64,000 nucleotides of DNA from Candidatus Gottesmanbacteria bacterium (GCA_963714095.1 OY970230.1:134206-198205), one strand, 5' to 3'. Positions 18,352 through 41,381 are shown, counted from the stretch's first letter. Program-made: numbers and translations. The notes: generated by a model not told the origin, from the letters alone.

Positions 18352-18384
18352 CTTCTTTACCTCAATAACGCGGGGTTTATCAGG
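18349..18384. repeat. copy 1 of a ~36-nt repeated element (TAACTTCTTTACCTCAATAACGCGGGGTTTATCAGG); begins with the LCP stop codon
   Basis: Aligns by eye at about 30/36 with copy 2 (26282..26317) and with copy 3 (41383..41418) over the GCGGGG-centred core. Confidence 0.5.
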
Positions 18385-18421
18385 CATCAAAACGATAAAA
18401 ATCGTATGCTATAATTCTTGT

Positions 18422-20002: not shown

Positions 20003-20032
20003 CTTTAACTTTTTGCTCAAAAACGCAGGGTT

Positions 20033-23000: not shown

Positions 23001-23179
23001 ATGCACAGTCCAATGAGAAAGTAATCTCGAAGATGCAGCCATCCGCGTTTAAATGTCAGACACTTCTGGTCTTCATGCTTCATGAGTAAATTGTACCTAA
23101 TGGAACCATGAGGAACAAGTCTATGCAAAGAATGCACAAAATGTCGGCGTTTATAAGACGCGTTTAACCAAAATGGCAT
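20033..23179 (-). CDS. membrane-anchored multidomain protein: N-terminal TM anchor, PQQ-like beta-propeller repeats, and a C-terminal TIM-barrel glycoside-hydrolase-like (clan GH-A/GH5-like) domain
   Basis: Repeats of the form DGRVYAIDTRTGKEQWQF, NGILYALDASTGSLKWQF and KTIYALNKNTGKTVWKF. The C-terminal region has VWELANE (NE acid/base-like) and LVFSEQG (nucleophile-like). The hydrolase assignment is tentative. Confidence 0.45.
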   Translation of the reverse strand: MPFWLNASYKRRHFVHSLHRLVPHGSIRYNLLMKHEDQKCLTFKRGWLHLRDYFLIGLCIILLPLILDRVGVWMYTNGWQYAFSEEIPLLTASPREDNSLSINNSSLYINVQSGFTYSLNRITGVFQWRHEGQKASIYPAAFGENNVMFVSSLDGRVYAIDTRTGKEQWQFVTPGLFMADTGPVISGGFVYFGSRNGILYALDASTGSLKWQFQTSQVDMWSLSPDATINHPDLLFGRFAVDELNVYLNSAADKTIYALNKNTGKTVWKFSLHGYLSQIPTIFAKTIAFFDSDGSYNIIDKISGMPVYKRFASRSQVYEGAARSYLPTGKNSISSIDSSNGSILWTRPTNSTQLLVMKEIGVSSLAIADYNRVTMVDAATGATKWSEEVNAGKINVILFDVDYVYVLGDDAQCAFKIGGGKEWCVKEHQFGNISFLTSDGIYLVSNNPNQTTISYLDKHSGLRKWVYQSNNVNINSMAVYTDDLYFVSKDKKSVVMLDTQSSIPFLQSKRIRMISDASHSISKIYGYVTYFIQQLSAFASVKPNSQKIIIDASPRSIRVNDVYEISVHIDESQYANKYDDGLIEGIFSNAQGKTYNVRAFYYDKNIWKLRFMPSLAGRWTWTIRTASASQHGSFTALPSDMPGFLSISRTDPRIFTLQNGTIFTPIGIQDCILDLKNDGEPLSQWFLGIDIKPGTRVAVSMNTYLSTYAQSGFNIFRWGPGNCSFTLWNTLSSSGNRYALNEGVWADTLFSALRSHNYHVWMTLFSFKLPFDASLNDAQKQTVIKHYLDYVVARYAAYVDVWELANEIKLDGHLITFMSDYIKSIDPYHHPVTVSWERPDLSSVDITSVHWYSRKCDQTCVNEVTLNSGLDKKTHKPLVFSEQGNFYSNWDDQSAARMRVHLWAGFFNKIFFIFWNASRMQYSNVDATSGASDLYIGPTERQYVSALNTFTKNLSTTLIDHPITSSATNAFAMDSGKQILGYVFRRIWDSAPSYCTISLKIPANGKIQWISTTTGLILSEQPVQKGALVLRSPIFSTDISFKIFLLDK

Positions 23180-23189
23180 CGTGCATATC
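23167..23189. repeat. R1 repeat copy A (ACCAAAATGGCATCGTGCATATC); antisense to the start codon and first codons of the 20033..23179 gene
   Basis: 22/23 nt identical to 26333..26355. Confidence 0.5.
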
Positions 23190-23245
23190 CAGATCCTTAG
23201 GAAGGAAGTATCAAAAATTAGTACAAAACATGATATATTAATTAA

Positions 23246-24757
23246 ATGAAAAAAATTATTATTTTAATTGTTAGTTTGACTGTTTGTTTATTACTATTGC
23301 TATCTCTCAGATATTATTCCTCATTTAAATCAGTAAATGCAAAGGTGTGTAACAAATGCAATGTAATTTTTATGTATATTGATACGCTGCGCGCGGATGA
23401 ATTGCCTTGCTGGGGATATACATATGATACGATGCCAAACGTATGCCATTTTGCCGAAAACGCAGCAAGTTTTAAAAACGCGTATTCTCAAAGCTCCTGG
23501 ACGTTGCCTGTTAATATGTCCATCATTACGTCACTGTATCCCTCCCAGCATAATATGTTAAGGGCTTATATCGATAGCCTGGATCCGTCGATTGTCACCA
23601 TGCCTCAAACATTCCAGGCAAACGGGTATTATACTGTTTTTGTCGGACAGTTAGACAATCCGCATTTACCAATTGATAAAGGATTAGGTAGGGGTTTTGA
23701 TGAAAAGATTAAGTATGAAACAATTGACGACTGGCATAAGGGATTATCAATTTTAGAAAAAAATAACGCCAAAGGAATCCCTAGTTTCTTATATATGCAT
23801 ACGTACTATGTCCATGATAGTTGGAAAGCAGCCGAAACTGATTCACTTGATTTCCATTTTGCGGGGGAAATGTCCAACCCCTATCACTATGATCCGCAAA
23901 GATTTAATAAAACCATCTGGGATACCGCAACGGCTTATTTGGAATATAATCCTGCTGATGTTCAAGGCGGAACTGAGTATGGGAAATTGGGCAAAGATCT
24001 TGAATCCGCAAAAAATGTAAACGCAGCCAAAATAATTTTCGATCAGCTGCCCGACAATACGAAGTCCATTATTAGGGATCTTTCAATAACGAAAGAATTG
24101 GACCCAACGAATCTAAAACTGATGCAATATCTCAGAAATTACTACGACGATTCCTTGTTTACGTTAGACCGACAAATAGGCATATGGTTAGAAGAATTAA
24201 AACAAAAAGGATTGCTTCAAAATACCATTGTGGTCATAGCAGGCGGAAACGGAGAAGCGTTTGGGGAACATGATGTGCTTGGTCATGCAAAGAATCTCTA
24301 CGATACCGTAACGCATGTTCCTCTTATCTATTATTTCCCCAACATTCAGCCGCAAACAAGATATGAGTTAACTCAAAGTATCGATATCTACCCTACGTTA
24401 TGCGGCTTAACAGGAATTAAATGCCCCGTTAACATTTCTGGTTCAAACTTTGCAAAAAGTCTTATGGGCAATTACTATGACAATCAAAATACGGGGCTGG
24501 TGAGCGAATTTGGTGATCAGAGTGAGCTAAAATCAATTCGAAATTTACGATGGAAATTTTATATTAACGAACAAACGAAAGATAAAGAATTGTATGATGT
24601 ATTACTTGATAAGGGAGAACGGACAAATCTAATCCAAAAATACCCGCAAATTGCCGATCATATGGAGCAGATGCTGTATTATACTCTCAGCACTAAAAGC
24701 AATCTCCCTATATTCGCGCTGCCTCCAATTCCGGTCCAAATACCAACATTGAAATAG
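23246..24757 (+). CDS. alkaline-phosphatase/sulfatase-superfamily protein, LtaS/MdoB-like (Thr-nucleophile type), secreted or anchored
   Basis: N-terminal signal anchor. Metal-site motif NVIFMYIDTLRADE. NAYSQSSWTLPVNMSIITSLYP parallels the LtaS/MdoB active-site block. No sulfatase CxPxR motif. Confidence 0.5.
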   Translation: MKKIIILIVSLTVCLLLLLSLRYYSSFKSVNAKVCNKCNVIFMYIDTLRADELPCWGYTYDTMPNVCHFAENAASFKNAYSQSSWTLPVNMSIITSLYPSQHNMLRAYIDSLDPSIVTMPQTFQANGYYTVFVGQLDNPHLPIDKGLGRGFDEKIKYETIDDWHKGLSILEKNNAKGIPSFLYMHTYYVHDSWKAAETDSLDFHFAGEMSNPYHYDPQRFNKTIWDTATAYLEYNPADVQGGTEYGKLGKDLESAKNVNAAKIIFDQLPDNTKSIIRDLSITKELDPTNLKLMQYLRNYYDDSLFTLDRQIGIWLEELKQKGLLQNTIVVIAGGNGEAFGEHDVLGHAKNLYDTVTHVPLIYYFPNIQPQTRYELTQSIDIYPTLCGLTGIKCPVNISGSNFAKSLMGNYYDNQNTGLVSEFGDQSELKSIRNLRWKFYINEQTKDKELYDVLLDKGERTNLIQKYPQIADHMEQMLYYTLSTKSNLPIFALPPIPVQIPTLK

Positions 24758-24825
24758 ATAACAATATACATAGGTACGTCGGCGAGTGTTCATGATATAA
24801 TTTCATCATACTATAGTAAAGTACA

Positions 24826-25470
24826 ATGAATATTCAGAGACATATAAAACTATATTTTTTTATCCTAATCTTGGTGTGCCTACTCGCAGTTGTAGGAATT
24901 ATTGTATGGAAAACCCGATTCACCTGTTCAACATATGAATGTCTGGTATTCCCCGAAAAAAATCTTTGGAAGATTCAGACTGTGTATGAAAAAGACAGTA
25001 ACGTTTTTAGGGGGCTTTTGGAGCGTCCTGATTATTTCGTCCGGCTGGAACGGGTCTCGCTTTTGCAACAGCAACAAAGCGCTGACAACCTCACGAAGAT
25101 CCGTCTCATGCAAATTCAGGGATTATTTGATACTGCACAGTCACCATATCCGGGTGTTATTACCGACAGAATTGTGTGTGCCGATACATACAAACCTAAT
25201 CCCGACATCCTAACCACGGCGTCGGGCGTAGGCATCACGTATTTTTCCGCTTTTCTCAATAGTCGGCTCCAATACGGTATATGTACTGATGACCAAATTG
25301 TCTATAAGGTATATACAGCATTATTTTCCTGTCAACAAACGGACGATTGGTATTCGGTTGAACTTATTGTTCCGAAGGGGAAAGCTTCTAGCGATTCCGC
25401 GTATATTGGGCTCTTTCGGCAGATTGGTTGTCAACGACCATCTGTAAACCTAGTCAAATTTTTGCCTTGA
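24826..25470 (+). CDS. hypothetical secreted/membrane-anchored protein
   Basis: N-terminal TM helix. No recognisable catalytic motifs. Confidence 0.35.
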   Translation: MNIQRHIKLYFFILILVCLLAVVGIIVWKTRFTCSTYECLVFPEKNLWKIQTVYEKDSNVFRGLLERPDYFVRLERVSLLQQQQSADNLTKIRLMQIQGLFDTAQSPYPGVITDRIVCADTYKPNPDILTTASGVGITYFSAFLNSRLQYGICTDDQIVYKVYTALFSCQQTDDWYSVELIVPKGKASSDSAYIGLFRQIGCQRPSVNLVKFLP

Positions 25471-25523
25471 ACAAAACCCGGGATCGTAAATTGAAGTATA
25501 TAGTAATATGAGAACATATTATC

Positions 25524-26270
25524 ATGGATAAATCATTTGAAGGGCTTGTAGTAACCAGTCGATCATTAGAATCTTATACATCTAATCTTAATATCGATAA
25601 AAAAGTATTATTCGGCTCTACCGTCCTGAATGTAGGATCAGGCGGTTCAAATATTGGTAAGGAATTCCCAGGTGACACTGGTAAAAAAGTAGTCAATGTG
25701 GATTTACTTCATGATCCATATTTTAGTATCCTTCCTCTTTCACACTTACCCAGATCATTATTTGCCAAACTGGTTGAACGTGCTGATCCAAATAACGTAC
25801 ATCTTAAACGTCAAATGGCCGGAACAGAGGGAAGGACTATGGTTCAAGCGGATGCTTTTAAATTGCCTTTCAAGGATGATCAATTTGATTATGTATTGGC
25901 AAACTGGTTTACCCAACAGATTCCAGTAGAAAAAAGGAATGACGTTATCAGAGAATTAGTCAGGGTTGGTAAACATATCCATATAGCACCAGTTTTTGAA
26001 GTTGATATCCCAAATCTATTAGATATGCATAAAAATGGAGGAGTGACAATCGTGTCATGTACTGCTCAACCAACCATGATGGATCCCCCACCATTTACGA
26101 TCGAAGATGCAAGTGATTACGCACGATATGTCAATGAACATCCAAAGTTATCCGAACGTGCTGTCATGCCACAAAGAACTGATGTATCTTTCAAAAAGAA
26201 GTTTGGCAGAATTGTTACAAACGCAACAGGTGGTAATAGTCTGATTTTGTGCAAGGATAAATATCTATAA
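25524..26270 (+). CDS. probable class I SAM-dependent methyltransferase-fold protein
   Basis: Gly-rich motif VLNVGSGGSNIG and acidic loop DAFKLPFKDDQFDYVL. Confidence 0.4.
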   Translation: MDKSFEGLVVTSRSLESYTSNLNIDKKVLFGSTVLNVGSGGSNIGKEFPGDTGKKVVNVDLLHDPYFSILPLSHLPRSLFAKLVERADPNNVHLKRQMAGTEGRTMVQADAFKLPFKDDQFDYVLANWFTQQIPVEKRNDVIRELVRVGKHIHIAPVFEVDIPNLLDMHKNGGVTIVSCTAQPTMMDPPPFTIEDASDYARYVNEHPKLSERAVMPQRTDVSFKKKFGRIVTNATGGNSLILCKDKYL

Positions 26271-26281
26271 GTCACAAATCT

Positions 26282-26317
26282 TAACTTCTCTGTCTCAAAA
26301 ATGCGGGGATTTATAGG
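26282..26317. repeat. copy 2 of the ~36-nt repeated element (TAACTTCTCTGTCTCAAAAATGCGGGGATTTATAGG)
   Basis: Lies 11 nt after the stop of the 25524..26270 gene. Its antisense reads ...IPAFLRQRS*, identical to the FtsZ C-terminus encoded antisense to copy 3. Confidence 0.5.
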
Positions 26318-26332
26318 ACAGTCGCTTATTTC

Positions 26333-26355
26333 GCTTCGATCTCCCTCACTACACC
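26333..26355. repeat. R1 repeat copy B (ACCAAAATGGCACCGTGCATATC)
   Basis: 22/23 nt identical to 23167..23189. Sits in the mosaic intergenic region 26271..26538. Confidence 0.5.
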
Positions 26356-26538
26356 AAAATGGCACCGTGCATATCAAAGTCTCCAATGAAAATGTAACAG
26401 GGAAGTGAAATAAAATCAACACGAACAATTTCTTGAAGCTAGTTTATGGATTTAGACTAATTTATCTGACATCATTTCACAAACTTCTTGCTACGACGCT
26501 CTGTTTTTAGTATTTTGTAGTATAATACCTATATTCCT

Positions 26539-27318
26539 ATGAAAGACATTCAAAACGAGAAAGACAAGCGGAATATAGCTCTTCAACTTGTGGGAATTAA
26601 AGACCTTATTCTTCCCGTTGTTATTGAAAATAAAAACGGAGAACCCGTCCAAATTTCTGCGACATTTAGCTGCTATACAGATTTGCCTTCCCATCAACGC
26701 GGCACACACATGAGCCGTCCCGCGCAACTATTACATACGCTTGAGGATAAACCGTTAACGCTATCCCAGCGGAAAGACATTGCAACACGCATTAAAGAAT
26801 CGCTTCATGCAAAACTCGCACTGCTAAATTTTACCTTCACCTATCATATTAAAAAAGAATCGCCGGTATCAAAAATGAAGAGTTATATGTCATATCCTTG
26901 CGAAATGCAGACAGTTTCAAACGGAATAAAATCAGCAAACCGCACAACCGTTCACGTACCGGTACTCCTACTCTGTCCGTGCAGTAAAGCCATAAGCGAA
27001 CAGAATGCCCATAATCAACGGGCAGTTATTACCATCCAAGTTGAATCAACAAATTCAGTGTTTCTCGAGGATCTTATTACCATCGCGGAAAACGCAGCAA
27101 GCAGCCCGCTCTATACAATTTTAAAACGTCCGGATGAAAAGTATGTAACAGAACGTTCATACGCGAATCCAAAATTTGTTGAAGATGCCGTAAGGGATGT
27201 CGCTTTAAAATTGAAAAAAATCAAAGCTATAACTGCCTTTAGTGTCGAATGTGAAAGCCAGGAATCAATTCATGGTCACAACGCATATGCACGGTTCTCA
27301 CAAGGAGGGCTTCAATGA
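26539..27318 (+). CDS. folE2: GTP cyclohydrolase FolE2/MptA-type (first step to the 7-deazaguanine precursor)
   Basis: Motifs QRGTHMSR, CPCS and ESIHGHNAYA, characteristic of FolE2 (DUF198). A TATAAT lies at about 26520. Confidence 0.8.
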   Translation: MKDIQNEKDKRNIALQLVGIKDLILPVVIENKNGEPVQISATFSCYTDLPSHQRGTHMSRPAQLLHTLEDKPLTLSQRKDIATRIKESLHAKLALLNFTFTYHIKKESPVSKMKSYMSYPCEMQTVSNGIKSANRTTVHVPVLLLCPCSKAISEQNAHNQRAVITIQVESTNSVFLEDLITIAENAASSPLYTILKRPDEKYVTERSYANPKFVEDAVRDVALKLKKIKAITAFSVECESQESIHGHNAYARFSQGGLQ

Positions 27319-27692
27319 AATCTGCGATCGTGTATATCAATAAAGAGTTTACCTTTGAAGCGGCACATAAACTGAATAACTATAACGGAAAATGCGCGAA
27401 TCTTCACGGGCATACGTATAAACTGCGCGTTACAACAAAGGGACCGGTTCACAAAAACGGCTTAGCTATTGATTTCGTTGATCTTAAAAAGATTGTGGAA
27501 GACAAAATTCTTATCCGGGTAGATCATACCTATTTAAATGACCTGATAAGCCAGCCTACGGCAGAAAATATTATCGTTTGGATGTGGCAAACACTGGACA
27601 AATACTTACCGCTCTATGAATTGTCTCTCTGGGAGACGCCAACCAGCTGGGTGACGTATCAGGGAAAGCATAAAATCTATGCCAACAAATGA
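27315..27692 (+). CDS. queD: 6-carboxy-5,6,7,8-tetrahydropterin synthase
   Basis: CANLHGHTYKL zinc/catalytic motif, 125 aa. AAGGAGGG Shine-Dalgarno immediately upstream. ATGA overlap with folE2. Confidence 0.85.
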   Translation: MKSAIVYINKEFTFEAAHKLNNYNGKCANLHGHTYKLRVTTKGPVHKNGLAIDFVDLKKIVEDKILIRVDHTYLNDLISQPTAENIIVWMWQTLDKYLPLYELSLWETPTSWVTYQGKHKIYANK

Positions 27693-28428
27693 ATGCTACC
27701 AACCTACACCAGGCGAAATCCAAGCGGCTCAGTTGAAACCGAACCTACTTAAAGTTTCAGGCGATTCCACTTTTTTTACTATTCAGGGAGAAGGAGACAG
27801 CATAGGAAAACCGGCAGTATTTTTACGTCTGCATCTGTGTAATCTCACCTGCACTTGGTGCGATACACCCTACACATGGAAGCGCACCACTCCGGAATTC
27901 TGGCAGGAAAGCCAGGATTGGGATATAGATCGGGCAGTATCGGAAATCAGCATCTTCAATCAACATCGACTGGTTCTTACGGGCGGAGAACCCATGATGC
28001 AACAAAAAATGATCTCGCAATTACTGAAGCGTGTTCCTGATTGGGATATAGAAATTGAAACAAACGGAACAATCTCTCCTATTCAGGATCTTGCAGAGCG
28101 GTGCCAATTCAATGTGTCACCAAAACTCGCCAATTCAGGCAATAAAGAACGATCACGATTAAAACCAGATGTTTTACGTGCATATAACGCCTTACCCAAA
28201 ACAACATTTAAGTTTGTGGCACAATCCGTTGATGATGTTCGGGAAATTGACGCAATTGTTGCAGAATGTGCTATTGACCCTCATAAAATTATTATTATGC
28301 CAGAGGGAAAAAATGAGGCATCAATCCGTGAACATGCACTCGCCGTAGTGGAAGAAGTAAAGAATCGCGGCTGGCGCCTGGTTCCGAGACTTCAGGTTAC
28401 CTTATGGGGTAATCAGCGAGGTATCTGA
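27679..28428 (+). CDS. queE: 7-carboxy-7-deazaguanine synthase (radical SAM)
   Basis: CNLTCTWCDTPY radical-SAM CxxxCxxC motif in a QueE-type context (FFTIQGEGDSIGKPAVFLRL), 249 aa. Confidence 0.85.
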   Translation: MPTNECYQPTPGEIQAAQLKPNLLKVSGDSTFFTIQGEGDSIGKPAVFLRLHLCNLTCTWCDTPYTWKRTTPEFWQESQDWDIDRAVSEISIFNQHRLVLTGGEPMMQQKMISQLLKRVPDWDIEIETNGTISPIQDLAERCQFNVSPKLANSGNKERSRLKPDVLRAYNALPKTTFKFVAQSVDDVREIDAIVAECAIDPHKIIIMPEGKNEASIREHALAVVEEVKNRGWRLVPRLQVTLWGNQRGI

Positions 28429-29154
28429 GATATTGAACAACCAGGGCTCTTTGACGAATTCTTCCGAATACCCTTTAGACGACATCATCTGCTGAGCCTT
28501 TTGTTCAATTTTTATCAATAAAGAGAATGTTTGTTGAAAATTTCTCGAGTCGAATGATTCTAGCTCACGTATGAACGAGCTTTCTATTAATTTCTCTCTT
28601 CTTATAAAATACCATCTCCACTTAAATGTGGGCACGGGCTTATCATAATAGATAAAACAGAATTTTGATAACGCATCGAGTGTTTTAAACATAAACATCC
28701 ATGATGTAATCAGATCACGCCGTTTCATTGTTTTTTCAAAATTGTAGGATTGAAACAATTCTTTGTATAGTCTGATGAGTATCCTTTGATATATTTTTTT
28801 ATGATATTTATTTAACTCCAAAAACTTCTTCTTCAATATTTTTTGAGGGTCATACAATATATGAGCCTTCTCCCTAATCCAAAATTCATCCGTGTCGGGA
28901 TCTGTTTTTTGTAATAGCTGACAAGAGGAAACTGTGTCTACTTCTATCTTTACCTCTTCGCTTTTGAACTGACTCATCTTAAATTCACTGTCTTCTTTAT
29001 CACAAACGAGTTTAATATCAATATCAGCAAGAGCGTCAGATATTCCGTATGCGGTTGATCCAATCCAGATGATACCCTGAAGACCGGGGACATTTAAATA
29101 CTTTTTGCTTACGTTTAAAGCAATTTTTTTAAAATCAGTAACATTTTTCATCAT
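28402..29154 (-). CDS. Pol-beta superfamily nucleotidyltransferase (ANT/Lnu-like fold)
   Basis: NTase motif IWIGSTAYGISDALADIDIKLV (G[SG]...D.D). Alpha-helical C-terminal region. Confidence 0.6.
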   Translation of the reverse strand: MMKNVTDFKKIALNVSKKYLNVPGLQGIIWIGSTAYGISDALADIDIKLVCDKEDSEFKMSQFKSEEVKIEVDTVSSCQLLQKTDPDTDEFWIREKAHILYDPQKILKKKFLELNKYHKKIYQRILIRLYKELFQSYNFEKTMKRRDLITSWMFMFKTLDALSKFCFIYYDKPVPTFKWRWYFIRREKLIESSFIRELESFDSRNFQQTFSLLIKIEQKAQQMMSSKGYSEEFVKEPWLFNISDTSLITP

Positions 29155-30119
29155 ACGGGTATTCCGGTAACTCTTAGTATATCGCGCTTTATATCACCAT
29201 GAAATCCGGGCTTATTCCATTGCCAAATCCAATAATTAAGACTTTCGAACGGTTTATAATAATTAACCTGGATTGTAATATCGTCTTTATTCATTTTTCC
29301 TACTGAAGCATATCCTTCGTGAAAAGCATCGCTTAAATCCATATTTTCCCGCGAATTTTCAAAAGCAGCACTCACTCTGGTTAAATCCCAACCGGGAATC
29401 CAATATTTCGCGAGTTCGAAATCTACAATACCGGCAATTCTCTGAGTATCAGGATTGATGATTATATTCTGTGGAGCAAAATCACCGTGACATAAGGTTG
29501 GTCTAACGCGGCAATGAGTAAGAATCGGACTTGTTAACCTATCAGTAAAATAATTAACGTGGGCTTGATGTAAAACACCTAAACTAAGTCCAAATTCAAG
29601 GTGTCTGAGTGTGTCTTGAGTAAAACAATCCTTCCAATCTGGAAATTTATCACCGGCATCGCCAACATCACCAAAATAGGGAGCGGTAATTCCGTGTATT
29701 CGGGATAAATATGTTCCTACTTCATGCGCGATTGCCCGTAAACTATCTCTGGAAAAATTGGATCCATTCATTAACGTATCAAAAGGTACTCCCCTAACTT
29801 CCTCCAAAAGTATTGCTGCATATCCCGACTTATCTTTTCCCAGATAAGTTGATTGAGAGGTATGTATACCCAAAGTCTCCCGAATCAATCGGGAAACAAT
29901 CAACTCTCTTTGAACTTTCAGCTCAGGTAATTCTCCCATTTCATCCGGCGTATTCGGAAAAATTTTTAAATAATATGATTTCAAATACGGAGACGCGTCG
30001 TGAGAAAAATATAAAAGGGTGTTTTGACTCGGTCTATCAACGGATTTAAACGAATACCCTTGATATGCTTCACCAACTTGCACTACGTGTTGAAAATATT
30101 CAGCATTCATTGCTACCAT
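29151..30119 (-). CDS. APH/choline-kinase-family small-molecule kinase (aminoglycoside-phosphotransferase-like fold)
   Basis: Brenner motif LCHGDFAPQNIII and metal-binding GIVDFE. Confidence 0.7.
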   Translation of the reverse strand: MVAMNAEYFQHVVQVGEAYQGYSFKSVDRPSQNTLLYFSHDASPYLKSYYLKIFPNTPDEMGELPELKVQRELIVSRLIRETLGIHTSQSTYLGKDKSGYAAILLEEVRGVPFDTLMNGSNFSRDSLRAIAHEVGTYLSRIHGITAPYFGDVGDAGDKFPDWKDCFTQDTLRHLEFGLSLGVLHQAHVNYFTDRLTSPILTHCRVRPTLCHGDFAPQNIIINPDTQRIAGIVDFELAKYWIPGWDLTRVSAAFENSRENMDLSDAFHEGYASVGKMNKDDITIQVNYYKPFESLNYWIWQWNKPGFHGDIKRDILRVTGIPV

Positions 30120-31300
30120 CCTATTTGCACTATTCCTTTTGGATTTGCTACAGCTTTATCCATTCGTTGAAAATCTTCCATATATTCGCACACCCGACAT
30201 TTACTGCCCGGCGTCATATCCGGAAAATGACCTTTCCTGAACTCAGAATATTTTTTACCTTCCCAAATATCTGCAAATCGCTCAGACCTGATATTGCCCA
30301 TAATAAATTTATCTCTACTTGTATCAGCAAAAGGACCATTATCATCATAAAGATATAAACAGGGTCTGACGTTACCCTGGGGATCTATCATGACACTGTA
30401 TTCACCGATATGGCACTGAGGGTGATTTTGAGTCTTCAAATATGAAGAGGGCGCAAGTACATTGTTATCGAAATCTTCAACCCGGATTAAACCGTGTGCA
30501 GCATATTTTATTGCAGATGAAAGATCCACTTCAGTGACAGGATGTAGATTTTCCAATCTGGCGATAAAAGACTTTAATATATCGAACGCTGAGTGGTTAA
30601 GCTCGTATGATCCGGTTCCATGAACGAGCGCCATCCTGAGCGTATCAACCCCGATATGATCTATATCCTCTGCAGTAACCGCGGTCAAATCCCGAATATT
30701 ACCTTTTTGAATAGTAAAGTTTGCAGATATTCTTACGTGATTCGCATCTAACCCCCATTCATCACGTGCTTGTCTTAATCGATGGATTGATTGTAATGTT
30801 CTCCCAAATGCATCAAAGGTTCCGTCAGGCATTCTGATTCCGTTATGGCTATCCTTATTAAACCCATCAACTGAAAAGGCAACATCAGTTTCCGTATCAA
30901 GTACCGCCTGTATAACAGCATCATCTAATTTTATTCCCGCAGTATATAACTCCGGTTTTATTCCATTCGTCCGTATATCAGTCAAAATTTGAGGCAAGTC
31001 TTCTCTCATAACAGGCTCCGTCCCGACGAGGGTTATCTTTCTTGTATGAAGCGTTTGTAACTGATCCATCAAGTCATCAAGCTCGGAAGTATTTAATGCG
31101 TTCTCCGATGGAGCACCTGAAGAAATCCACTTGTGCCGATCGCACATTTGACACCTCAGATAACAGGCATAATTAATTTGTAAAATTACGTTATTCGGAC
31201 CGATAGTCGCTGGGAGTTCACCGCTTCTGGATAAATCCTGATATACGCGTTGATCGACCTCTTTAAGTGAATAAGGGTTATAACGAAAAGCTTCATTCAT
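30113..31300 (-). CDS. radical SAM enzyme with C-terminal SPASM/twitch-like Cys cluster
   Basis: NYACYLRCQMCDRHKW (CxxxCxxC) at the N-terminus. C-terminal Cys motifs ...CHIGEY...RPCLY...GSKCRVCEY. Confidence 0.7.
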   Translation of the reverse strand: MNEAFRYNPYSLKEVDQRVYQDLSRSGELPATIGPNNVILQINYACYLRCQMCDRHKWISSGAPSENALNTSELDDLMDQLQTLHTRKITLVGTEPVMREDLPQILTDIRTNGIKPELYTAGIKLDDAVIQAVLDTETDVAFSVDGFNKDSHNGIRMPDGTFDAFGRTLQSIHRLRQARDEWGLDANHVRISANFTIQKGNIRDLTAVTAEDIDHIGVDTLRMALVHGTGSYELNHSAFDILKSFIARLENLHPVTEVDLSSAIKYAAHGLIRVEDFDNNVLAPSSYLKTQNHPQCHIGEYSVMIDPQGNVRPCLYLYDDNGPFADTSRDKFIMGNIRSERFADIWEGKKYSEFRKGHFPDMTPGSKCRVCEYMEDFQRMDKAVANPKGIVQIGW

Positions 31301-31369
31301 AATTTGCGTTTAAATACAAAAACAGATAGTATTATATACTAAATTAGGTTGATATGACAATAAAAAGCT

Positions 31370-32254
31370 ATGGTCAAGCATGAAATGTTTTTACCAATTG
31401 AAGCCCCTGCATTTATCCGACACGCGCCACTGGATTTGAGCATTGTCATACGTTGCGGCAGAGACAAAAACGGACTAATCCGTTTTCTTACATCAGTTAA
31501 TGAAAACGTTGAAGTAGTCGTAAGCGCAGCAGAAGATGCTTCATTTATTCACGAATTTCAGGAAAAAGGGTACAAAATTGCTCCTCATACATACGGAAAC
31601 TGGAGCAGCGCCGCACAGGCGGGAATAAATGCATCTACCAATAATGACGTTATTATCATGGATTCTGATTCAGTTTTTGGTGAGGGCGCAATAAATACGA
31701 TTGATAAAGCACTTAAAGACGGTCACTTATTAGTACAACCAAGAATTATCTTTATGGATAACGGAACGCCGTTAAGTAAAATAATCGCACAGGCAAGAAC
31801 CTATGAAAACAGAAGAGTACCCAAATCATATTCTCCGGGTTTAGGATTGAAAGTGCAGGAATTGACTGAAAGAATCGGAGTCGGAGGAAACGTATATAAC
31901 TTATCGGTTGCCTACGGAGATGACGGAGATTTAGATCAACGAAGAAGAAATGCAGGCATAGACGTATATGTTGCGGAGGACGCATTAATATATTCAGATC
32001 CGAATACGCTTGAACATGAATTAAAAACAGCGTATCGTTTTGGAATCGGAGAAAGGCAATCGCAACAGGGAAAAACGAACCAAAAAAATATCGTTGATAT
32101 CATGAATGAGGAATTCTTTTCTAAAGAAGCTAAGGAATACTATATGAATCTTATACGACAGTTTGGCATACCAACTGCCATGTTTATGATGTTCTGCAGA
32201 TCCGCCTATGTCACTGGGTTTCAAACGGCGGGCAATATAAAAACTACCCTATGA
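31370..32254 (+). CDS. GT-A fold (GT2-like) glycosyltransferase-like protein
   Basis: LDLSIVIRCGRD (GT2 N-terminal strand) and DxD-like VIIMDSDSVF. Confidence 0.45.
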   Translation: MVKHEMFLPIEAPAFIRHAPLDLSIVIRCGRDKNGLIRFLTSVNENVEVVVSAAEDASFIHEFQEKGYKIAPHTYGNWSSAAQAGINASTNNDVIIMDSDSVFGEGAINTIDKALKDGHLLVQPRIIFMDNGTPLSKIIAQARTYENRRVPKSYSPGLGLKVQELTERIGVGGNVYNLSVAYGDDGDLDQRRRNAGIDVYVAEDALIYSDPNTLEHELKTAYRFGIGERQSQQGKTNQKNIVDIMNEEFFSKEAKEYYMNLIRQFGIPTAMFMMFCRSAYVTGFQTAGNIKTTL

Positions 32255-33831
32255 ACGAACGACTACTATCAGGTCCCGTTGCGTACGCAGCCACACAATA
32301 TAAAGAATATAACACTACTGATCAGGCGAGTAAGCTTGAGCATTTAGATTCGGTTGGCAGAGCGTATATCGAACAAGGTCACGCTCCCTTTTATGATGCA
32401 CAATTTCTGGAACATCATATTGCGAAACTAAGAGAAGAACAAAGAGGTAACAATTTTTCTTTTACATGGATGCCGGAAAATCCCCACGGTAACTTTTTAA
32501 GGCAAAATACCCATCGTGATGGGTACATCATGCCCGAACCAGCGACGATTGAAAGTATCGAGAAGCTTATTCATGATGAACCGGATATACGAAATATTGT
32601 TTTTGCTGTATATTCCAACGGGTATAGTATTTTCAGAGATATTGCAACACATCTTCACAAAGAACATCCGCAAATCGAAATCGTCGCGGGAGCAGTAGGA
32701 TCGTTATATCGCGAAACACAACAATTAGCTCAGCATATCCTTGGGGGTAACCAGATTGATGATATGCGGAGATTACTTGGTGAACCGGTTTTAAATCCTC
32801 TTCACATATCCACTGCCCCATCTCATACGTCTACCACATATAACGGTGCTACGAAACAAAGCACATATGGAGTTATGATAAGCAGCTACGGTTGTCCATA
32901 TCGATGTGATTTTTGTCCGACTACAGCACAATATCAGGGTAAATACAGTACTCCGCATAGTGCGGATGAAATTGTGAAAGCCATACATGAAGCACACGAT
33001 GCTATCGCTCCTGATAAACCAATAATGTCACTCAGTATTGCTGACCCACAGGGTTTGGGCGATGTTCCTGTATGGAAGGAGGTTTTTCAAAGATGCCAAA
33101 ATACGGGTTTCATGGTAGAACTGGCGACAACGACATCTTCAAAAATATTAGAACAGTATTCTCCTGATGAACTAACGCAGGGAGATTTATACCTTTCGTG
33201 TGTGAATATAGGGGTTGAATCTATGATATCACCCTATGTAAAAAACCGCGGAATAGATTTGAGGAAAGAAATTGAAAAGTATCAGTCTGCCGGGATACGT
33301 ATAGCTGCAACATTTATCGTTGGGCATGATTGGCATAACCAAACAAATATTTGGGAGGACGTTGATAAAATTCAACAGTTAGGAGCGTCCGGCTATATCG
33401 TTTCCAATATGATGATGGAACGCGGGACAACTATTTTTAGTAAAATGCAAGCTGATGGAAGACTATTGGATGTGCCGCCTGAATTTGAGGCGACATACGG
33501 ATATCAGTCATTCAGACATCCGAACTTTGAACCGGGTTTCAATGCCATGGTTCCTATCCTTTCACAAATTGAAGCCAAGCTAAATCAAGGAATTGATGTT
33601 TTTACCGGTGATGAACACTTCTATCTTCAAAGGGTTAATGCGCGAATTACAGAAACTCAAACTCAATTAAGAACACGAATGAAAGAAATAGAGAGAACTG
33701 TTATGGCAGATAGTTCATTGCATCCGGATGCAAAAACTTCTGAAATCAAAAAACAACAGGTACAACTATACTATGATACTATTTTCAGGAATATTGACCT
33801 GTTTCACCCATATATAACCTGGAATGTCTAA
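32251..33831 (+). CDS. radical SAM enzyme, class-B-like (putative N-terminal Rossmann/B12-binding-like domain followed by radical SAM core)
   Basis: SSYGCPYRCDFCPTT (CxxxCxxC) at about residue 215, preceded by a flavodoxin-like block IVFAVYSNGYSIF...IEIVAGAVGS. Confidence 0.55.
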   Translation: MNERLLSGPVAYAATQYKEYNTTDQASKLEHLDSVGRAYIEQGHAPFYDAQFLEHHIAKLREEQRGNNFSFTWMPENPHGNFLRQNTHRDGYIMPEPATIESIEKLIHDEPDIRNIVFAVYSNGYSIFRDIATHLHKEHPQIEIVAGAVGSLYRETQQLAQHILGGNQIDDMRRLLGEPVLNPLHISTAPSHTSTTYNGATKQSTYGVMISSYGCPYRCDFCPTTAQYQGKYSTPHSADEIVKAIHEAHDAIAPDKPIMSLSIADPQGLGDVPVWKEVFQRCQNTGFMVELATTTSSKILEQYSPDELTQGDLYLSCVNIGVESMISPYVKNRGIDLRKEIEKYQSAGIRIAATFIVGHDWHNQTNIWEDVDKIQQLGASGYIVSNMMMERGTTIFSKMQADGRLLDVPPEFEATYGYQSFRHPNFEPGFNAMVPILSQIEAKLNQGIDVFTGDEHFYLQRVNARITETQTQLRTRMKEIERTVMADSSLHPDAKTSEIKKQQVQLYYDTIFRNIDLFHPYITWNV

Positions 33832-33852
33832 CGTCGTTCAGGTTGTCATTAC

Positions 33853-34932
33853 GTGCCAAACTGTAGTAGAATCAGCCAAGGAATTACTATGGTACGGAAT
33901 CTGGAAATCGAACCACGCAGGCTTATCGAAAATCAACGTACGTTGCCACCGATATGGTGGGACAGTTTGAACGGACTTACCGACCCTCATAAAGTATTAT
34001 TAGTTACTACTCCTTCTGCAGAGTTGCAGTTTAATCCAGTCTCAGCTGGATTTAATATTGTTGACCATCTGCACGTGGCAGATGAAACGCAAAAAACAGC
34101 AGACGAGATGCTACTCTACCCCGGCGATACTATTGAAAAAGTTTTCGCTGTGGGCGGCGGAAGAGCAATAGATATGGCAAAACTTATAGCCCACCGATGG
34201 GATAAAGAATTAATTGCCATTCCGACGATTCTTTCGACCGATGCGTTTCTGGTAAATTCTACGGGAGTGAGAACTGACGGATGCGTCAAATATATTCAAT
34301 CTAAACAACCTGATCTGATACTTTTCGACATGGATGTATTAAAACAAGCACCCTATGTATATCATGCTTCCGGTTGTTGTGATGTTCTCTCCATTGTTAC
34401 CGCCGTATCGGATTGGAAATTGGCTCATGACAAAGGTAAATTACTTCCCGATGAACCATATATCGAATCGGTTGCACAAACATCAAAAGCGATAGTGAGC
34501 TATCTATTTGAAAATGCTGAAAATATTTCTGCAAAAACTCCTGAAGGGCTTACTGCCATCATCAATGCTCTTTCTATGGAAGTTGAGTTATGTAATCTGT
34601 ATGGAAATAGCCGACCGGAAGAAGGCGGTGAACATTTTTTTGCATATGCTATTGAATCCCGTTTACCTCACGCAATACATGGAGAACTAGTAGGACTTGG
34701 TATTCTCTTAACTGCATATATGCAGCACCAACCATGGCAAGAGGTACAACATTTTATGGACAGCATCGGAATGAATTATCGCCCTCAAGGTATATCTACC
34801 CAGATAATCACTGACACACTGGAGGGAATGCGTGAGTATGTTGAACGTCATGCGCTTCGATACAGTATCTGGAATGAATATCATCATAATGAAAAAAACA
34901 TCCAGACATTTCTAAATGCCATACATTTATGA
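33853..34932 (+). CDS. iron-containing ADH superfamily polyol(-phosphate) dehydrogenase, glycerol-dehydrogenase/G1PDH(AraM)-like
   Basis: VFAVGGGRAIDMAKLIA (NAD-binding GGG..D.AK) and IAIPTILSTDAFLVNS (IPT..STDA block of GldA/G1PDH rather than the VPTTLLAQVDS of DHQS). Confidence 0.6.
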   Translation: MPNCSRISQGITMVRNLEIEPRRLIENQRTLPPIWWDSLNGLTDPHKVLLVTTPSAELQFNPVSAGFNIVDHLHVADETQKTADEMLLYPGDTIEKVFAVGGGRAIDMAKLIAHRWDKELIAIPTILSTDAFLVNSTGVRTDGCVKYIQSKQPDLILFDMDVLKQAPYVYHASGCCDVLSIVTAVSDWKLAHDKGKLLPDEPYIESVAQTSKAIVSYLFENAENISAKTPEGLTAIINALSMEVELCNLYGNSRPEEGGEHFFAYAIESRLPHAIHGELVGLGILLTAYMQHQPWQEVQHFMDSIGMNYRPQGISTQIITDTLEGMREYVERHALRYSIWNEYHHNEKNIQTFLNAIHL

Positions 34933-35633
34933 ATGAAATACCACTAAAAACAACAGAACTTGAGGCGGTCATGAAAGGGTTAGAGCGACAATCAACAAAA
35001 CGGGTTGTCCTACTCTATTCCGGCGGCGCGGACAGTACTGCAGCAGGACTAAAACTTCGTGAAGACGGATATTCCGTCTACCCTATATTCTTTGACTATA
35101 ATCAAAGCGCCCGGGACGCAGAGCGTTTTCTTGTAAGTAATGCTCCCGATACACTTGGTTTTGAAAAAACGAAAATCGTGCGAACAGACTTACTTACAGA
35201 CCTAAGTCACAGCGCACTGCTTGGAGGCGACGCCAAAGATGACACATCGGCATGGGTTCCCGGTCGAAACACGCTTTTCATGATTGCTGCGGGCATTTAT
35301 GGACATCAGATAGATGCTGACGGCATCGCCATCGGATATATGCGTTCAGATGAAGGGGTATTCGGAGATTCAAATAAGCTGCATCACAAAATAGTAGAAA
35401 CACTTCTTGAAAAAACACTTTCCCGACCTATGGAAGTTCGCTTACCTTTGGCACAAATGACAAAAATGGACGTATTGCAGTACCTCAACGATCACAGAGT
35501 TATTGATCTTACCGTATCGTGTTGGAATGCAACACTTCAGGGTAATACAGTTCAAACGTGCCATACATGCGCAAACTGCGTCGAACGTGAAGAAAGCCTT
35601 CGTGGGATTATCTACCAATACGGTAAAAAATAG
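34929..35633 (+). CDS. queC: 7-cyano-7-deazaguanine synthase
   Basis: PP-loop VVLLYSGGADST. C-terminal zinc motif CWNATLQGNTVQTCHTCANC. ATGA overlap with the preceding Fe-ADH gene. Confidence 0.85.
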   Translation: MNEIPLKTTELEAVMKGLERQSTKRVVLLYSGGADSTAAGLKLREDGYSVYPIFFDYNQSARDAERFLVSNAPDTLGFEKTKIVRTDLLTDLSHSALLGGDAKDDTSAWVPGRNTLFMIAAGIYGHQIDADGIAIGYMRSDEGVFGDSNKLHHKIVETLLEKTLSRPMEVRLPLAQMTKMDVLQYLNDHRVIDLTVSCWNATLQGNTVQTCHTCANCVEREESLRGIIYQYGKK

Positions 35634-35676
35634 AGTTTAGATTGATTTTACGGTCTAAAAGCGTATAATATTCCCT

Positions 35677-36648
35677 ATGCCTGTCTCAGAAATTCTCAAA
35701 CGACTCGACGAATACGACATCCGTCCCAACGAACAACTTGGGCAACATATTCTCATTGACCCCAAATGGCTTGGCTATATTGCTGATCAAACCTGTCGTG
35801 GCGGACATGTTATAGAAATCGGAGCCGGACCAGGGAACCTGACTGAACCCATTGCGGCGCTCGCAAAATACGTTACTGCGATTGAACTGGATCGCCGATA
35901 TGAACCCATGTTGCAGGATCTTCATGAACGACATCCCAACGTAACCGTTATATTCGGGGACGCCATTAAGCAGGATTTTCGACAATTACAAAAACAATCT
36001 GATAGAACACTGCAGATTATCGGAAATATCCCCTATCACATTTCAGAACCGCTTATGAAAAAACTTACTGATGTCCCTATGGAAGATGCCGTGCTTACGG
36101 TCGGCGATAAACTGAGTGAAACATTACGGGAAACGAATCCTTCTAGCATTAATTTCACAAGACTTTCTCTTCTTGCATTAGGTTTTTTCGACGTAGATTT
36201 ATTAGCTAAAATTCCAAAAAGTGCCTTTTATCCAATGCCAAGGACAGAATCGCAAATCATAAGGATTACGCCGAAAATGAAAGCGGAATCATCCAATCCC
36301 GGTATTCGCGTTATTCAACAATTATTTCTAAGCGGTGATAGTTCATCAGTCGAAAATATTATGAGAACGGCACTCAACGGCGGAATATCGGATCGAAAGC
36401 TACGATACAAAGATGAACAGAATAGATACGAACGTCGGGAAACACGAAGATCGTTGGAAATGATGAGGCGCGGATATAATGCTTCTCAAGACCTCTCGGA
36501 AGAAGATGGGCAACAAGGCATGTCTAAAGATCCGATATCACTAATGAACATACCGGGACAGATTCTCACCCACAGATTTTCCAGTCTTAGCAATGACGAA
36601 GTGTGCACGCTCTCAAAAGCTATCTTAGACGTCTATCCAAGTCAATAA
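35677..36648 (+). CDS. KsgA/Dim1/Erm-family rRNA adenine N6-dimethyltransferase-like protein with a ~100-aa basic C-terminal extension
   Basis: QHILIDPKW, HVIEIGAGPGNLTEPIA and IIGNIPYHISEP (NLPYNIS-type catalytic motif). The C-terminal extension is unusual: RKLRYKDEQNRYERRETRRSLEMMRRG. Confidence 0.65.
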   Translation: MPVSEILKRLDEYDIRPNEQLGQHILIDPKWLGYIADQTCRGGHVIEIGAGPGNLTEPIAALAKYVTAIELDRRYEPMLQDLHERHPNVTVIFGDAIKQDFRQLQKQSDRTLQIIGNIPYHISEPLMKKLTDVPMEDAVLTVGDKLSETLRETNPSSINFTRLSLLALGFFDVDLLAKIPKSAFYPMPRTESQIIRITPKMKAESSNPGIRVIQQLFLSGDSSSVENIMRTALNGGISDRKLRYKDEQNRYERRETRRSLEMMRRGYNASQDLSEEDGQQGMSKDPISLMNIPGQILTHRFSSLSNDEVCTLSKAILDVYPSQ

Positions 36649-37399: not shown

Positions 37400-37403
37400 A
37401 CAA

Positions 37404-40185: not shown

Positions 40186-40299
40186 TAACTAGAATATATT
40201 GCTAGGACGGGCTTATTATATCATTTTACTCAAATACACCTATAGAAACCAGTCTTAAAATAACAACTTCGGGGATACTTGCATTGAAACAGCCCACAA

Positions 40300-40572: not shown

Positions 40573-40589
40573 AAATATTTTGTTTAAAA

Positions 40590-41348: not shown

Positions 41349-41381
41349 ACAGCTATTTTACCATTGAAGAAAGTAAATGTA

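Follow-up and report, generated by a model that had tools for sequence, protein, structure and literature searches.

Introduction

The 7-deazapurine natural products known so far come almost entirely from actinomycetes, and they are elaborated by ribosylation, simple glycosylation, or amide formation. The known clusters, including those for toyocamycin/sangivamycin, tubercidin, huimycin, dapiramicin, and roseomycin, share a GTP cyclohydrolase, QueD, QueE, and QueC. The same functions are encoded in a 64,000-nucleotide stretch of DNA from a Candidatus Gottesmanbacteria bacterium (GCA_963714095.1 OY970230.1:134206-198205), hereafter the window. There they accompany a minus-strand operon at 28402-31300 for a radical S-adenosylmethionine (SAM) enzyme, an aminoglycoside phosphotransferase (APH)-fold kinase, and a Pol-beta-type nucleotidyltransferase (NTase). 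In the huimycin and dapiramicin systems the deazapurine is decorated by glycosyltransferases and methyltransferases, as is proposed here. Unlike the described clusters with their actinomycete hosts, the present one and its relatives belong to uncultivated bacteria, and no phosphoribosyltransferase is encoded in the window cluster.

Deazapurine cluster families described in a 2026 survey of some 2 million genomes feature phosphoribosyltransferases, GT4 glycosyltransferases, methyltransferases, ATP-grasp enzymes, and dioxygenases; the terms SPASM, aminoglycoside, phosphotransferase, and nucleotidyltransferase do not occur in the text of the survey. Twitch or SPASM radical SAM enzymes, APH-fold kinases, Pol-beta NTases, PIG-L/DegT/GFO modules, and KsgA/Erm-like genes are all absent from the described 7-deazapurine families, and no cluster with this gene combination is described in the literature searched. 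A preliminary description of this DNA had stated that neither of the functions it proposed for the kinase and the NTase is known for preQ0-derived metabolites. In agreement, the same literature describes no kinase, NTase, or SPASM enzyme for such compounds.

In the window, dedicated genes for GTP cyclohydrolase, QueD, QueE, and QueC stand beside tailoring genes, and no enzyme that inserts the base into nucleic acid is encoded with them, as is typical of a 7-deazapurine cluster. The reading favored here, at about even confidence, is that the product of the cluster is a glycosylated 7-deazaguanine derived from preQ0, probably an antibiotic or ribosome-targeting compound, and that a kinase and an NTase mask it. 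It belongs to the same evenly balanced picture that the cluster, about 16 kb long at roughly 25.5-41.3 kb of the window, was acquired horizontally. The cluster operates in the manner of glycoside and nucleoside antibiotic pathways already described; its enzymes have known folds, and each belongs to an orphan clade.

The Three-Gene Operon

The preliminary description had reported three tightly coupled minus-strand open reading frames (ORFs) at 28402-31300, and the coordinates in the ORF list match exactly. The radical SAM ORF (30113-31300, 395 aa) is followed by the kinase ORF, which in its longest form spans 29151-30119 (322 aa), and by the NTase ORF (28402-29154, 250 aa). The reported overlap of the radical SAM and kinase genes at 30113/30119 has to be revised. 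The likely kinase start is the ATG at 30110 (MNAEYF), which is shared by the homologues and by a database gene call and is preceded by AGGA 8 nt upstream. The protein then has 319 aa (29151-30110), and instead of an overlap of 7 nt there is a gap of 2 nt from the stop of the radical SAM gene to the start of the kinase gene. The overlap of the kinase stop with the NTase start (29151-29154) is genuine and has the form ATGA. At its 3' end, the NTase ORF converges on queE (27679-28428, plus strand). The 27-nt overlap reported there exists in the ORF coordinates, but it is made by a non-conserved tail of the NTase: the 10 C-terminal residues are modeled at low confidence, and all homologues stop at ...PWLF.

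A divergent promoter region of 69 nt (31301-31369) separates the operon from the gene of a GT2-like glycosyltransferase. It contains, upstream of the radical SAM gene, a sigma-70-like site on the minus strand (31360 to 31331) matching at 11 of 12 positions, the number of such sites over the whole region being not above chance. No terminator-like site was found between the three genes, and they probably form one transcription unit of the larger cluster.

This arrangement is not due to chance, because the order radical SAM, kinase, NTase, or parts of it, recurs in related loci, which are labeled here with L numbers. The full order is found in Candidatus Roizmanbacteria (L009; 62, 44, and 54% identity, respectively), that of radical SAM and kinase in L101, and that of kinase and NTase in L092. 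The idea of three genes forming a fixed functional unit could nevertheless not be maintained: the radical SAM gene is core together with the GT2-like gene, the NTase gene is near-core, and the kinase gene is accessory and mobile.

The Radical SAM Enzyme

Among the closest known counterparts of this enzyme is BtrN, the 2-deoxy-scyllo-inosamine dehydrogenase of butirosin biosynthesis and the founding twitch radical SAM enzyme. It carries a twitch domain, a truncated SPASM domain with one auxiliary cluster, which in BtrN is fully ligated by four Cys and is associated with the two-electron oxidation of a carbinol (PMC9012708). The 395-aa protein of the window matches the Pfam families Radical_SAM (39 bits, cut-off 29.5) and SPASM (53 bits). 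A CX3CX2C cluster motif (C46/C50/C53) and an invariant G93-T94-E95-P96, of the GGE type that binds SAM, place it in the radical SAM superfamily. Exactly seven Cys are invariant in the alignment of its family (24 members). The four auxiliary ones, C296, C314, C368, and C371, are arranged as C-x12-G-x4-C ... C-x2-C; of the seven-Cys SPASM motif (CX9-15GX4C ... CX2CX5CX3C ... C), the CX5CX3C...C part is missing. The earlier term SPASM-type is thus justified by the Pfam match but not by the cysteines, of which only four auxiliary ones are conserved, in the twitch layout.

BtrN shows the same auxiliary layout (C-x12/13-G-x4-C ... C-x2-C), and the family profile aligns residues 290-376 to its twitch domain (residues 163-239, E 4e-7), the four Cys all falling in line with those of BtrN. 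Each of the two enzymes is encoded in a cluster of the glycoside antibiotic type. The two differ in length (about 250 aa in BtrN, 395 aa here), and only the C-terminal 85 or so residues, not the cores, are detectably similar. Neither 2-deoxy-scyllo-inosose synthase (DOIS) nor 2-deoxystreptamine of the BtrN pathway has a counterpart in the window cluster. The enzyme is predicted to be of the twitch (BtrN) type, with a single auxiliary cluster fully ligated by C296, C314, C368, and C371.

In the AlphaFold2 (AF2) model (pLDDT 90), a beta-hairpin lies between C296 and C314, and the core begins at about residue 37, which therefore leaves no room for an N-terminal peptide-recognition domain. Foldseek comparison with the PDB gave the top TM-score (0.63/0.74) to BlsE, the cytosylglucuronate decarboxylase of blasticidin S biosynthesis. 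Among the best by E-value was DesII, a deaminase/dehydrogenase of thymidine diphosphate (TDP)-4-amino-4,6-dideoxyglucose. BlsE abstracts hydrogen from a nucleobase-linked sugar and DesII from a nucleotide-linked one, the kind of role proposed here next to a glycosyltransferase; identity to them is only 15-17%, and the base is cytosine or TDP there against 7-deazaguanine here. SkfB, MoaA, and the anaerobic sulfatase-maturating enzyme (anSME) were also matched, the last at fold level only. A single-sequence search of the PDB gave no match.

There is close to no chance that the enzyme matures a peptide made on the ribosome and modified after translation (RiPP), or is an anSME serving the "sulfatase" gene 6 kb away (23246-24757, plus strand). 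Besides that gene, this possibility could draw on the Pfam SPASM match and on the peptide or cofactor maturases that are the best-scoring NCBIfam models (W-cofactor maturase, 88 bits) and recur among the Foldseek matches. The enzyme has, however, four auxiliary Cys and not the seven needed for two clusters, and the roughly 35 residues before its core could not hold a recognition domain. A search for small precursor-peptide ORFs, as had been suggested, found none conserved across independent loci, and the intergenic ORFs in the window are unremarkable. The constant neighbors are preQ0 genes and a glycosyltransferase gene. The "sulfatase" contains DTLRAD in place of C/S-x-P-x-R, and its gene is absent from every related locus. 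By the Cys count, the short N-terminus, the want of a conserved small ORF, and the non-canonical, non-conserved "sulfatase", both the RiPP and the sulfatase-maturase proposals are effectively refuted. The original view that this is a small-molecule enzyme of the BtrN/twitch kind, not a peptide maturase, agrees with the alignment of the four Cys to the BtrN ligands and with the short N-terminus.

The "sulfatase" also has an N-terminal hydrophobic anchor. With this anchor and with DTLRAD, whose Thr would be the nucleophile, it therefore resembles an exported phosphodiesterase or transferase of the alkaline phosphatase superfamily. Adjoining the cluster, it could in theory strip the phosphate or nucleotide from a masked product outside the cell.

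The radical SAM family is small, with 33 members among 5.8 billion proteins, all at least 47% identical to the query. In 185,579 species-representative genomes and the JGI metagenomes, identity drops abruptly from at least 50% to at most 28%. An aminocyclitol had been proposed as the substrate, which is made less likely by L091, where the enzyme is present without aminocyclitol or aminosugar genes. Since this locus has the radical SAM gene but no aminotransferase or aminosugar genes, a deazaguanine-linked sugar is a likelier substrate than an aminocyclitol, and the enzyme most likely would oxidize a sugar on deazaguanine.

The APH-Fold Kinase

The 322-aa protein matches Pfam APH with 57 bits (cut-off 23.2). 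The residues invariant in seven sequences, K49, E69, H208-x-D210-x4-N215, and D230-F231-E232, identify an APH fold. When the family profile was compared with the PDB, the best match was APH(2'')-Id/IVa (E 1e-12), followed by other APH(2'') enzymes, the hygromycin B 7''-kinase, and gentamicin-resistance kinases. APH(2'')-IVa/Id and the window kinase have the fold and the catalytic residues in common, and both are acidic; the relationship to APH(2'')-Id is, however, remote, and the scores of the window kinase are far below every curated APH cut-off (18.5 bits against 600). It likewise falls short of the NCBIfam cut-offs for the named APH(2''), APH(3'), and APH(7'') families (best 18-23 bits against 264-640), and its NCBIfam matches, to antibiotic kinases, Bud32, and CotS-type kinases, are weak.

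The APH-fold subfamilies of NahK/AmgK, methylthioribose (MTR) kinase, and homoserine kinase II are absent among the eight NCBIfam matches at E<=0.01. NahK/AmgK and the MTR and homoserine kinases are likewise missing from the best 60 of 281 PDB profile matches at E<=1. Neither a conserved precursor peptide nor a homoserine or MTR kinase match was found, the two outcomes that would have spoken against the original account of the radical SAM enzyme and the kinase.

The isoelectric point (pI) of the kinase family is conserved at 4.8-5.8, as would be expected of proteins that bind a cationic, aminoglycoside-like substrate. Only five close relatives were found among 5.8 billion proteins, and the kinase gene is an accessory, dispensable member of the cluster family.

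Kinases of the APH type can be biosynthetic, as exemplified by GenP, which is strictly so and whose phosphorylation starts 3',4'-dideoxygenation in gentamicin biosynthesis (PMC7941887). On this precedent the kinase, perhaps together with the NTase, would activate a sugar hydroxyl for elimination by a pyridoxal phosphate (PLP)-dependent or radical SAM enzyme, a proposal that we regard as distinctly improbable. DegT, which depends on PLP, is indeed encoded in the window cluster along with two radical SAM enzymes, and the kinase gene always adjoins core GT2-like or radical SAM genes. The kinase and DegT nevertheless do not co-vary (L094 has the kinase without DegT, L003 has DegT without the kinase), and at sequence level nothing sets such leaving-group chemistry apart from masking. 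To our knowledge, moreover, DegT-family enzymes are not of the GenB3/GenB4 type, which also counts against it.

The Pol-Beta Nucleotidyltransferase

The sole Pfam match of the 250-aa protein is DUF4037. Its catalytic residues G32-S33, D44-x-D46, and E71 are invariant and form the Pol-beta signature. The N-terminal domain aligns to minimal NTases, and wider relatives carry both NTP_transf_2 and DUF4037. An N-terminal NTase domain precedes the helical substrate domain DUF4037, which has been grouped with KNTase_C, the C-terminal substrate domain of aminoglycoside NTases (PMC3710099). In the AF2 model (pLDDT 91), the fold resembles that of kanamycin nucleotidyltransferase, which together with the invariant signature confirms the Pol-beta NTase identity proposed earlier.

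Foldseek ranked ANT(4')-Ia first (E 7e-8, TM 0.57, 16% identity), with further matches to a structural-genomics NTase, HalB, LinB, ANT(6), and ANT(4')-IIb. ANT(4')-Ia, LinB, and ANT(6) share with the window NTase the Pol-beta domain, a helical domain (inactive HEPN/DUF4037-type), and the catalytic G-S, D-x-D, and E. With the ANT(4')-I model of NCBIfam the protein reaches 16.5 bits (cut-off 350), and a single-sequence search of the PDB gave no match. The family is tiny: HMMER searches of 1.84 billion representative proteins yielded 8 members at E<=1e-30, a number that rises to 99 at E<=1e-3. Its pI is 9.1-9.9, all members of the tight clade are basic (8.9-9.9), and the wider DUF4037 relatives range from 4.4 to 9.7. 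Aminoglycoside NTases, which are resistance enzymes, are acidic. This basic character, which also distinguishes the family from ANT(4')-Ia, suggests an anionic substrate.

The Surrounding Cluster

The whole route from GTP to preQ0 is encoded in the cluster by FolE2, QueD, QueE, and QueC. The folE2-queD-queE genes (26539-28428, plus strand) provide the first three steps to 7-carboxy-7-deazaguanine (CDG), the 7-deazaguanine precursor. Their products match Pfam GCHY-1 (280 bits), PTPS (116 bits), and Radical_SAM/Fer4_12, and the QueE assignment is based on NCBIfam QueE models with scores up to 101 bits. The gene for the preQ0 synthase, queC, lies at 34929-35633 (plus strand; Pfam QueC, 111 bits).

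Between queE and queC, beyond the three-gene operon, three further genes are transcribed from the plus strand. The first encodes the GT2-like glycosyltransferase (31370-32254, 294 aa), an enzyme of the GT-A type with a DxD motif and a weak PF00535 match. The second encodes another large radical SAM protein (32251-33831, 526 aa), matching Radical_SAM weakly. The third (33853-34932) encodes an Fe-ADH_2 oxidoreductase resembling glycerol-1-phosphate dehydrogenase (G1PDH), its best PDB match (5fb3, E 1e-25). A 2-deoxystreptamine-type aminocyclitol pathway was considered for the cluster and rejected: this sole protein of the dehydroquinate synthase superfamily is closest to G1PDH and not to a cyclase, and there is no DOIS.

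To the right of queC follow a KsgA/Erm-family rRNA adenine dimethyltransferase-like gene (35677-36648, plus strand; Pfam RrnaAD, 126 bits) and an aminosugar module (36620-40185, minus strand) of a PIG-L deacetylase, a DegT aminotransferase, a GT4 glycosyltransferase, and a GFO/IDH/MocA oxidoreductase. A SAM-dependent methyltransferase gene (40590-41348, minus strand), with orthologues in L005, L009, and L176, forms the right edge. Another (25524-26270, plus strand), without conservation in other loci, is the probable left edge. The KsgA/Erm-like protein reaches 147 bits with the KsgA model (cut-off 171) and 108 with the Erm model (cut-off 212). Orthologues of its gene occur in L005/L097 (L005 16313-17275), L091 (3769-4821), L094 (10525-11589), and L098 (at about 4524), thus including the minimal cluster. 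It is a candidate self-resistance gene, which would point to the ribosome as the target.

The second radical SAM protein shows weak NCBIfam matches to HpnJ (17.5 bits, cut-off 577) and to B12-radical-SAM models, and a single-sequence search of the PDB found no match for it. Proteins of this kind, 509-526 aa long, travel with the PIG-L/DegT/GT4/GFO module: besides the window gene at 32251-33831, they are encoded in L003 (13123-14652), L005 (12023-13600), and L176 (907-2487). The combination of such an enzyme with a glycosyltransferase and PIG-L recalls the hopanoid cyclitol-ether route of HpnI, HpnK, and HpnJ. An HpnJ-like ring contraction by the 526-aa protein may be taken as a lead, the likeness being too weak to claim it.

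Neither the window cluster nor any related locus has a match to a tRNA-guanine transglycosylase or a DpdA-type inserting enzyme, and the deazaguanine is therefore not obviously destined for nucleic acid. This bears on a further proposal, in which the clusters would make a modified 7-deazaguanine nucleotide for nucleic acids or defense, the NTase acting on RNA, DNA, or nucleotides like MenT, HalB, or a CD-NTase and the radical SAM enzyme being viperin-like. The basic NTase with HalB among its structural matches, the weak matches of the radical SAM core to PADLOC pVip models (57 bits), the HEPN/helicase genes next to L003, and the conjugation and recombinase genes next to L088 and L089 fit such a role. 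It is highly improbable all the same: the inserting enzymes are missing, the enzymes that prevail in the clusters are glycosyltransferases, an aminotransferase, and a deacetylase, the pVip score is weaker than those of other radical SAM families (the W-cofactor maturase with its 88 bits), and the kinase and NTase have no PADLOC matches. Membership of the radical SAM enzyme in the prokaryotic viperins (pVip) was rejected, the 57-bit match covering the radical SAM core only.

The GC content is 0.38-0.43 over roughly 18-42 kb of the window and 0.45-0.51 in the flanks, this low-GC island reaching left beyond the cluster. Non-conserved host genes lie to the left of the cluster and FtsZ/FtsA/FtsQ genes to the right, with FtsZ starting after the right edge, at 41382. 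Also on the left are the gene of the isoleucyl-tRNA synthetase (IleRS) and a cell-envelope polysaccharide locus (1262-9790 and 16933-20002). The latter comprises three GT4 genes, three PMT_2 (ArnT-like) genes, and genes for a Wzx-type flippase, a methyltransferase, and an LCP-family protein, and GC falls to 0.34 at 6-8 kb. No Rfam element, riboswitches included, was matched at E<=1 over 23000-42600. In the whole window, a single tRNA-Val is the only Rfam match at the gathering threshold and the only ARAGORN gene.

Mobile genes also lie near two relatives: L088 and L089 are flanked by integrase, resolvase, relaxase, or TraG-like genes. The HEPN/helicase genes of L003 are located at 16879-21200. 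These neighbors, together with the low-GC island of the window wedged against the FtsZ operon, suggest horizontal mobility.

Related Loci

Orthologues were tabulated across the loci by tblastn and clustering. About 15 related lineages carry the radical SAM gene; all are uncultivated bacteria, and one (L009) is the Candidatus Roizmanbacteria mentioned above. The GT2-like gene accompanies it wherever flanking sequence exists; in 10 loci the two are directly divergent, and in the remainder they lie no more than 4 kb apart. All nine members of the GT2-like family (about 285 aa) match PF00535 weakly and share an invariant M97-D98-x-D100-S101; a single-sequence search of the PDB gave no match. The preQ0 genes are found in every locus with enough context except L088, and the GTP cyclohydrolase, QueD, QueE, and QueC functions are all present in the window, L003, L005, L089, L090, L091, and L094. 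The scaffold-forming core consists of the preQ0 genes, the GT2-like gene, and the twitch radical SAM gene. A minimal cluster, L091, holds these and one more: KsgA/Erm-like, GTP cyclohydrolase I (GCH-I), QueD, QueE, QueC, GT2-like, and radical SAM.

The NTase gene is present in 8 of the 10 loci with substantial context and absent from L091 and L088. The kinase orthogroup is represented in the window, L005/L097, L009, L093, L094, L100, L101, and L176, and a different APH-fold kinase (fructosamine-kinase-like) in L089 and L090. The complete cluster L003/L008 has the NTase but no APH-fold kinase; a GT4 gene occupies the kinase position, and a transporter of the major facilitator superfamily (MFS) is encoded. 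Gene order is fluid: in L176 the kinase gene (66% identical) converges on queE, the place of the NTase gene in the window.

The aminosugar module recurs with the same four genes in the same order in L003, L005/L097, and L098, and the second radical SAM gene co-occurs with it in the window, L003, and L005. L096 and L098 share identical DNA over the QueD region and must therefore come from one organism; joined, they comprise GFO, GT4, DegT, PIG-L, KsgA/Erm-like, QueE, QueD, GCH-I, GT2-like, radical SAM, the second GT4 described below, and NTase. The kinase and the KsgA/Erm-like methyltransferase occur together in the window, L005, and L094, and L003 has neither. The notion of the two as correlated "resistance" genes was downgraded in view of the joined L096 and L098, which has the methyltransferase and, in the place of the kinase, a GT4.

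This second GT4 (GT4_394, about 394 aa, Pfam "GT4-conflict") is encoded in L003 (11194-12387), L009, L088, L089, L090, L093, L094, L095, and L096. It takes the position of the kinase in L003 and L096 and has no orthologue in the window.

Some loci depart further from the window. In L092 (9182-10849, GCA_041643095.1), the kinase is fragmented into pieces of 87 and 145 aa (59% identical over 138 aa), and the adjoining NTase is 68% identical with an altered C-terminus. The pair lies among genes for UvrABC, ribosomal protein L19, CTP synthase, and ATP synthase, with no biosynthetic genes within 10 kb; it is either a cluster relic or a stand-alone modifying pair. In L175 (536-5744), a 43%-identical NTase is encoded between two NUDIX genes, overlapping the first by 4 nt. 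Its other neighbors are a 426-aa CX9CX2C protein, a 349-aa protein with a motif resembling the phosphoribosyl pyrophosphate (PRPP)-binding motif of phosphoribosyltransferases (CLIIDKTYTGKT), a CYTH protein, and a thymidylate-kinase-like protein. L175 is a different, nucleotide-centered context of the same NTase clade.

L089 and L090 are the most divergent clusters. Their QueC proteins (L089 5748-6950, L090 5790-6995) measure about 400 aa, with an N-terminal extension of about 115 residues and about 22% identity to the window QueC. Both carry StiP-like, S6PP-like, His_Phos_1, and NUDIX genes, and L089 also has a carbamoyltransferase gene. These two clusters may make a different deazapurine derivative.

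Proposed Pathway and Role of the Kinase and NTase

In the proposed pathway, the GT2-like enzyme would attach a hexose to deazaguanine. The twitch radical SAM enzyme would abstract a hydrogen from a carbinol carbon of this sugar, and the second electron would pass to the fully ligated auxiliary cluster. The resulting keto-sugar would be the product of a dehydrogenation of the BtrN/DesII type, which a BlsE-like loss of a group possibly follows. In the larger clusters, keto or hydroxy positions would be aminated by the GFO/IDH/MocA and DegT enzymes, and N-acetylglucosamine (GlcNAc) would be added by GT4 and deacetylated by PIG-L. The acidic APH(2'')-like kinase would then phosphorylate a hydroxyl of the cationic glycoside, and the basic NTase would transfer a nucleoside monophosphate (NMP) to a hydroxyl of an anionic form that bears a phosphate or nucleotide. 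Both groups would be transient masks that keep intermediates inactive in the producer, and the KsgA/Erm-like methyltransferase would protect the target.

For such masking there is a described precedent. In the muraymycin pathway, the phosphotransferase Mur28 and the nucleotidyltransferase Mur29 modify the same hydroxyl for self-resistance at different pathway times, according to a review (PMC12710036). There, as in the window, a kinase and a nucleotidyltransferase are co-encoded; the parallel lies in these described roles, and the window system differs in that its NTase is basic and near-core and its kinase accessory.

Masking, or cryptic modification, would fit slightly better than sequential activation of a sugar, although what the two group transfers are for is the least secure element of the overall picture. 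It is favored because the nearest relatives of the kinase and the NTase are antibiotic-modifying enzymes, because the Mur28/Mur29 pair is known from a nucleoside-antibiotic cluster (PMC12710036), because a candidate target-protecting methyltransferase is present, and because the kinase is replaceable, L003 having an exporter instead. The preliminary description had preferred activation, with self-resistance or product masking as an alternative. The alternative proved at least as well supported, and the preference was weakened by the occurrence of the NTase without the kinase in L003/L008.

In sequential activation, the kinase would convert a sugar, polyol, or deazaguanine glycoside into its phosphate monoester, and the NTase would add NMP to give a nucleoside diphosphate (NDP) donor for a glycosyltransferase. 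This is unlikely. In its favor, translation of the kinase and NTase genes is coupled in the window, the two genes are adjacent in the same order in L009 and L092, and the kinase orthogroup is confined to NTase-bearing clusters (5 of 5 loci with enough context). A uniformly basic NTase suits an anionic substrate, and NUDIX hydrolases, which cleave NDP-X bonds, are encoded beside it together with phosphatases in L089, L090, and L175. L089 and L090 have the other, fructosamine-kinase-like APH-fold kinase, and APH-fold anomeric sugar kinases exist (NahK and AmgK). Set against this, the complete L003/L008 cluster encodes the NTase, yet up to 10 kb to the left and right of it there is not a kinase of any sort, the L096 and L098 composite has a GT4 where the window has the kinase, and in L176 the kinase stands apart from the NTase. 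The structural neighbors of the NTase all transfer NMP to hydroxyls, and the closest relatives of the kinase are antibiotic kinases, not NahK, AmgK, or MTR kinase. All NDP-sugar-forming enzymes that we know of, moreover, use folds other than Pol-beta.

A masked, ribosome-targeting glycoside of 7-deazaguanine has several observations to its disadvantage. The KsgA/Erm-like gene is the sole pointer to the ribosome, and its product scores below both family cut-offs. By Foldseek E-value, radical SAM enzymes that act on sugars are not set apart from those that act on peptides, and each of the three operon enzymes belongs to an orphan clade that scores well short of all curated family cut-offs. A basic NTase would be ill suited to simply modifying an end product that is polycationic. 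It is also retained in L003 without the kinase or the KsgA/Erm-like methyltransferase, and therefore behaves more like a biosynthetic than a resistance gene; being near-core, it may be needed for the pathway itself. Finally, the NUDIX and phosphatase genes that accompany the NTase in L089, L090, and L175 suggest pyrophosphate-linked (NDP-X) intermediates, which favors sequential activation.

Implications for Deazapurine Metabolism

A bolder possibility, fairly improbable, is that the product is a new ribosome-targeting hybrid of 7-deazaguanine and aminoglycoside-like aminosugars from uncultivated, partly candidate-phyla-radiation bacteria, in which the kinase and then the NTase generate an NDP-activated intermediate. 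If so, the NTase would be the first Pol-beta-fold enzyme acting as a sugar-phosphate nucleotidyltransferase, and its product the first nucleotide-activated building block in deazapurine metabolism.

The cluster family adds to the deazapurines a pair of a twitch radical SAM enzyme and a GT-A glycosyltransferase, an aminoglycoside-style aminosugar module, and modifying enzymes of the antibiotic type. Its hosts are unexpected, being uncultivated lineages of which one is labeled Candidatus Roizmanbacteria, a group generally thought to be poor in biosynthetic capacity. The seven-gene minimal cluster L091 is suited to heterologous expression. If the product is a ribosome inhibitor, the family would offer a novel scaffold together with three enzyme families that are orphans, and the kinase, the NTase, and the KsgA/Erm-like methyltransferase might prove to be new resistance determinants.

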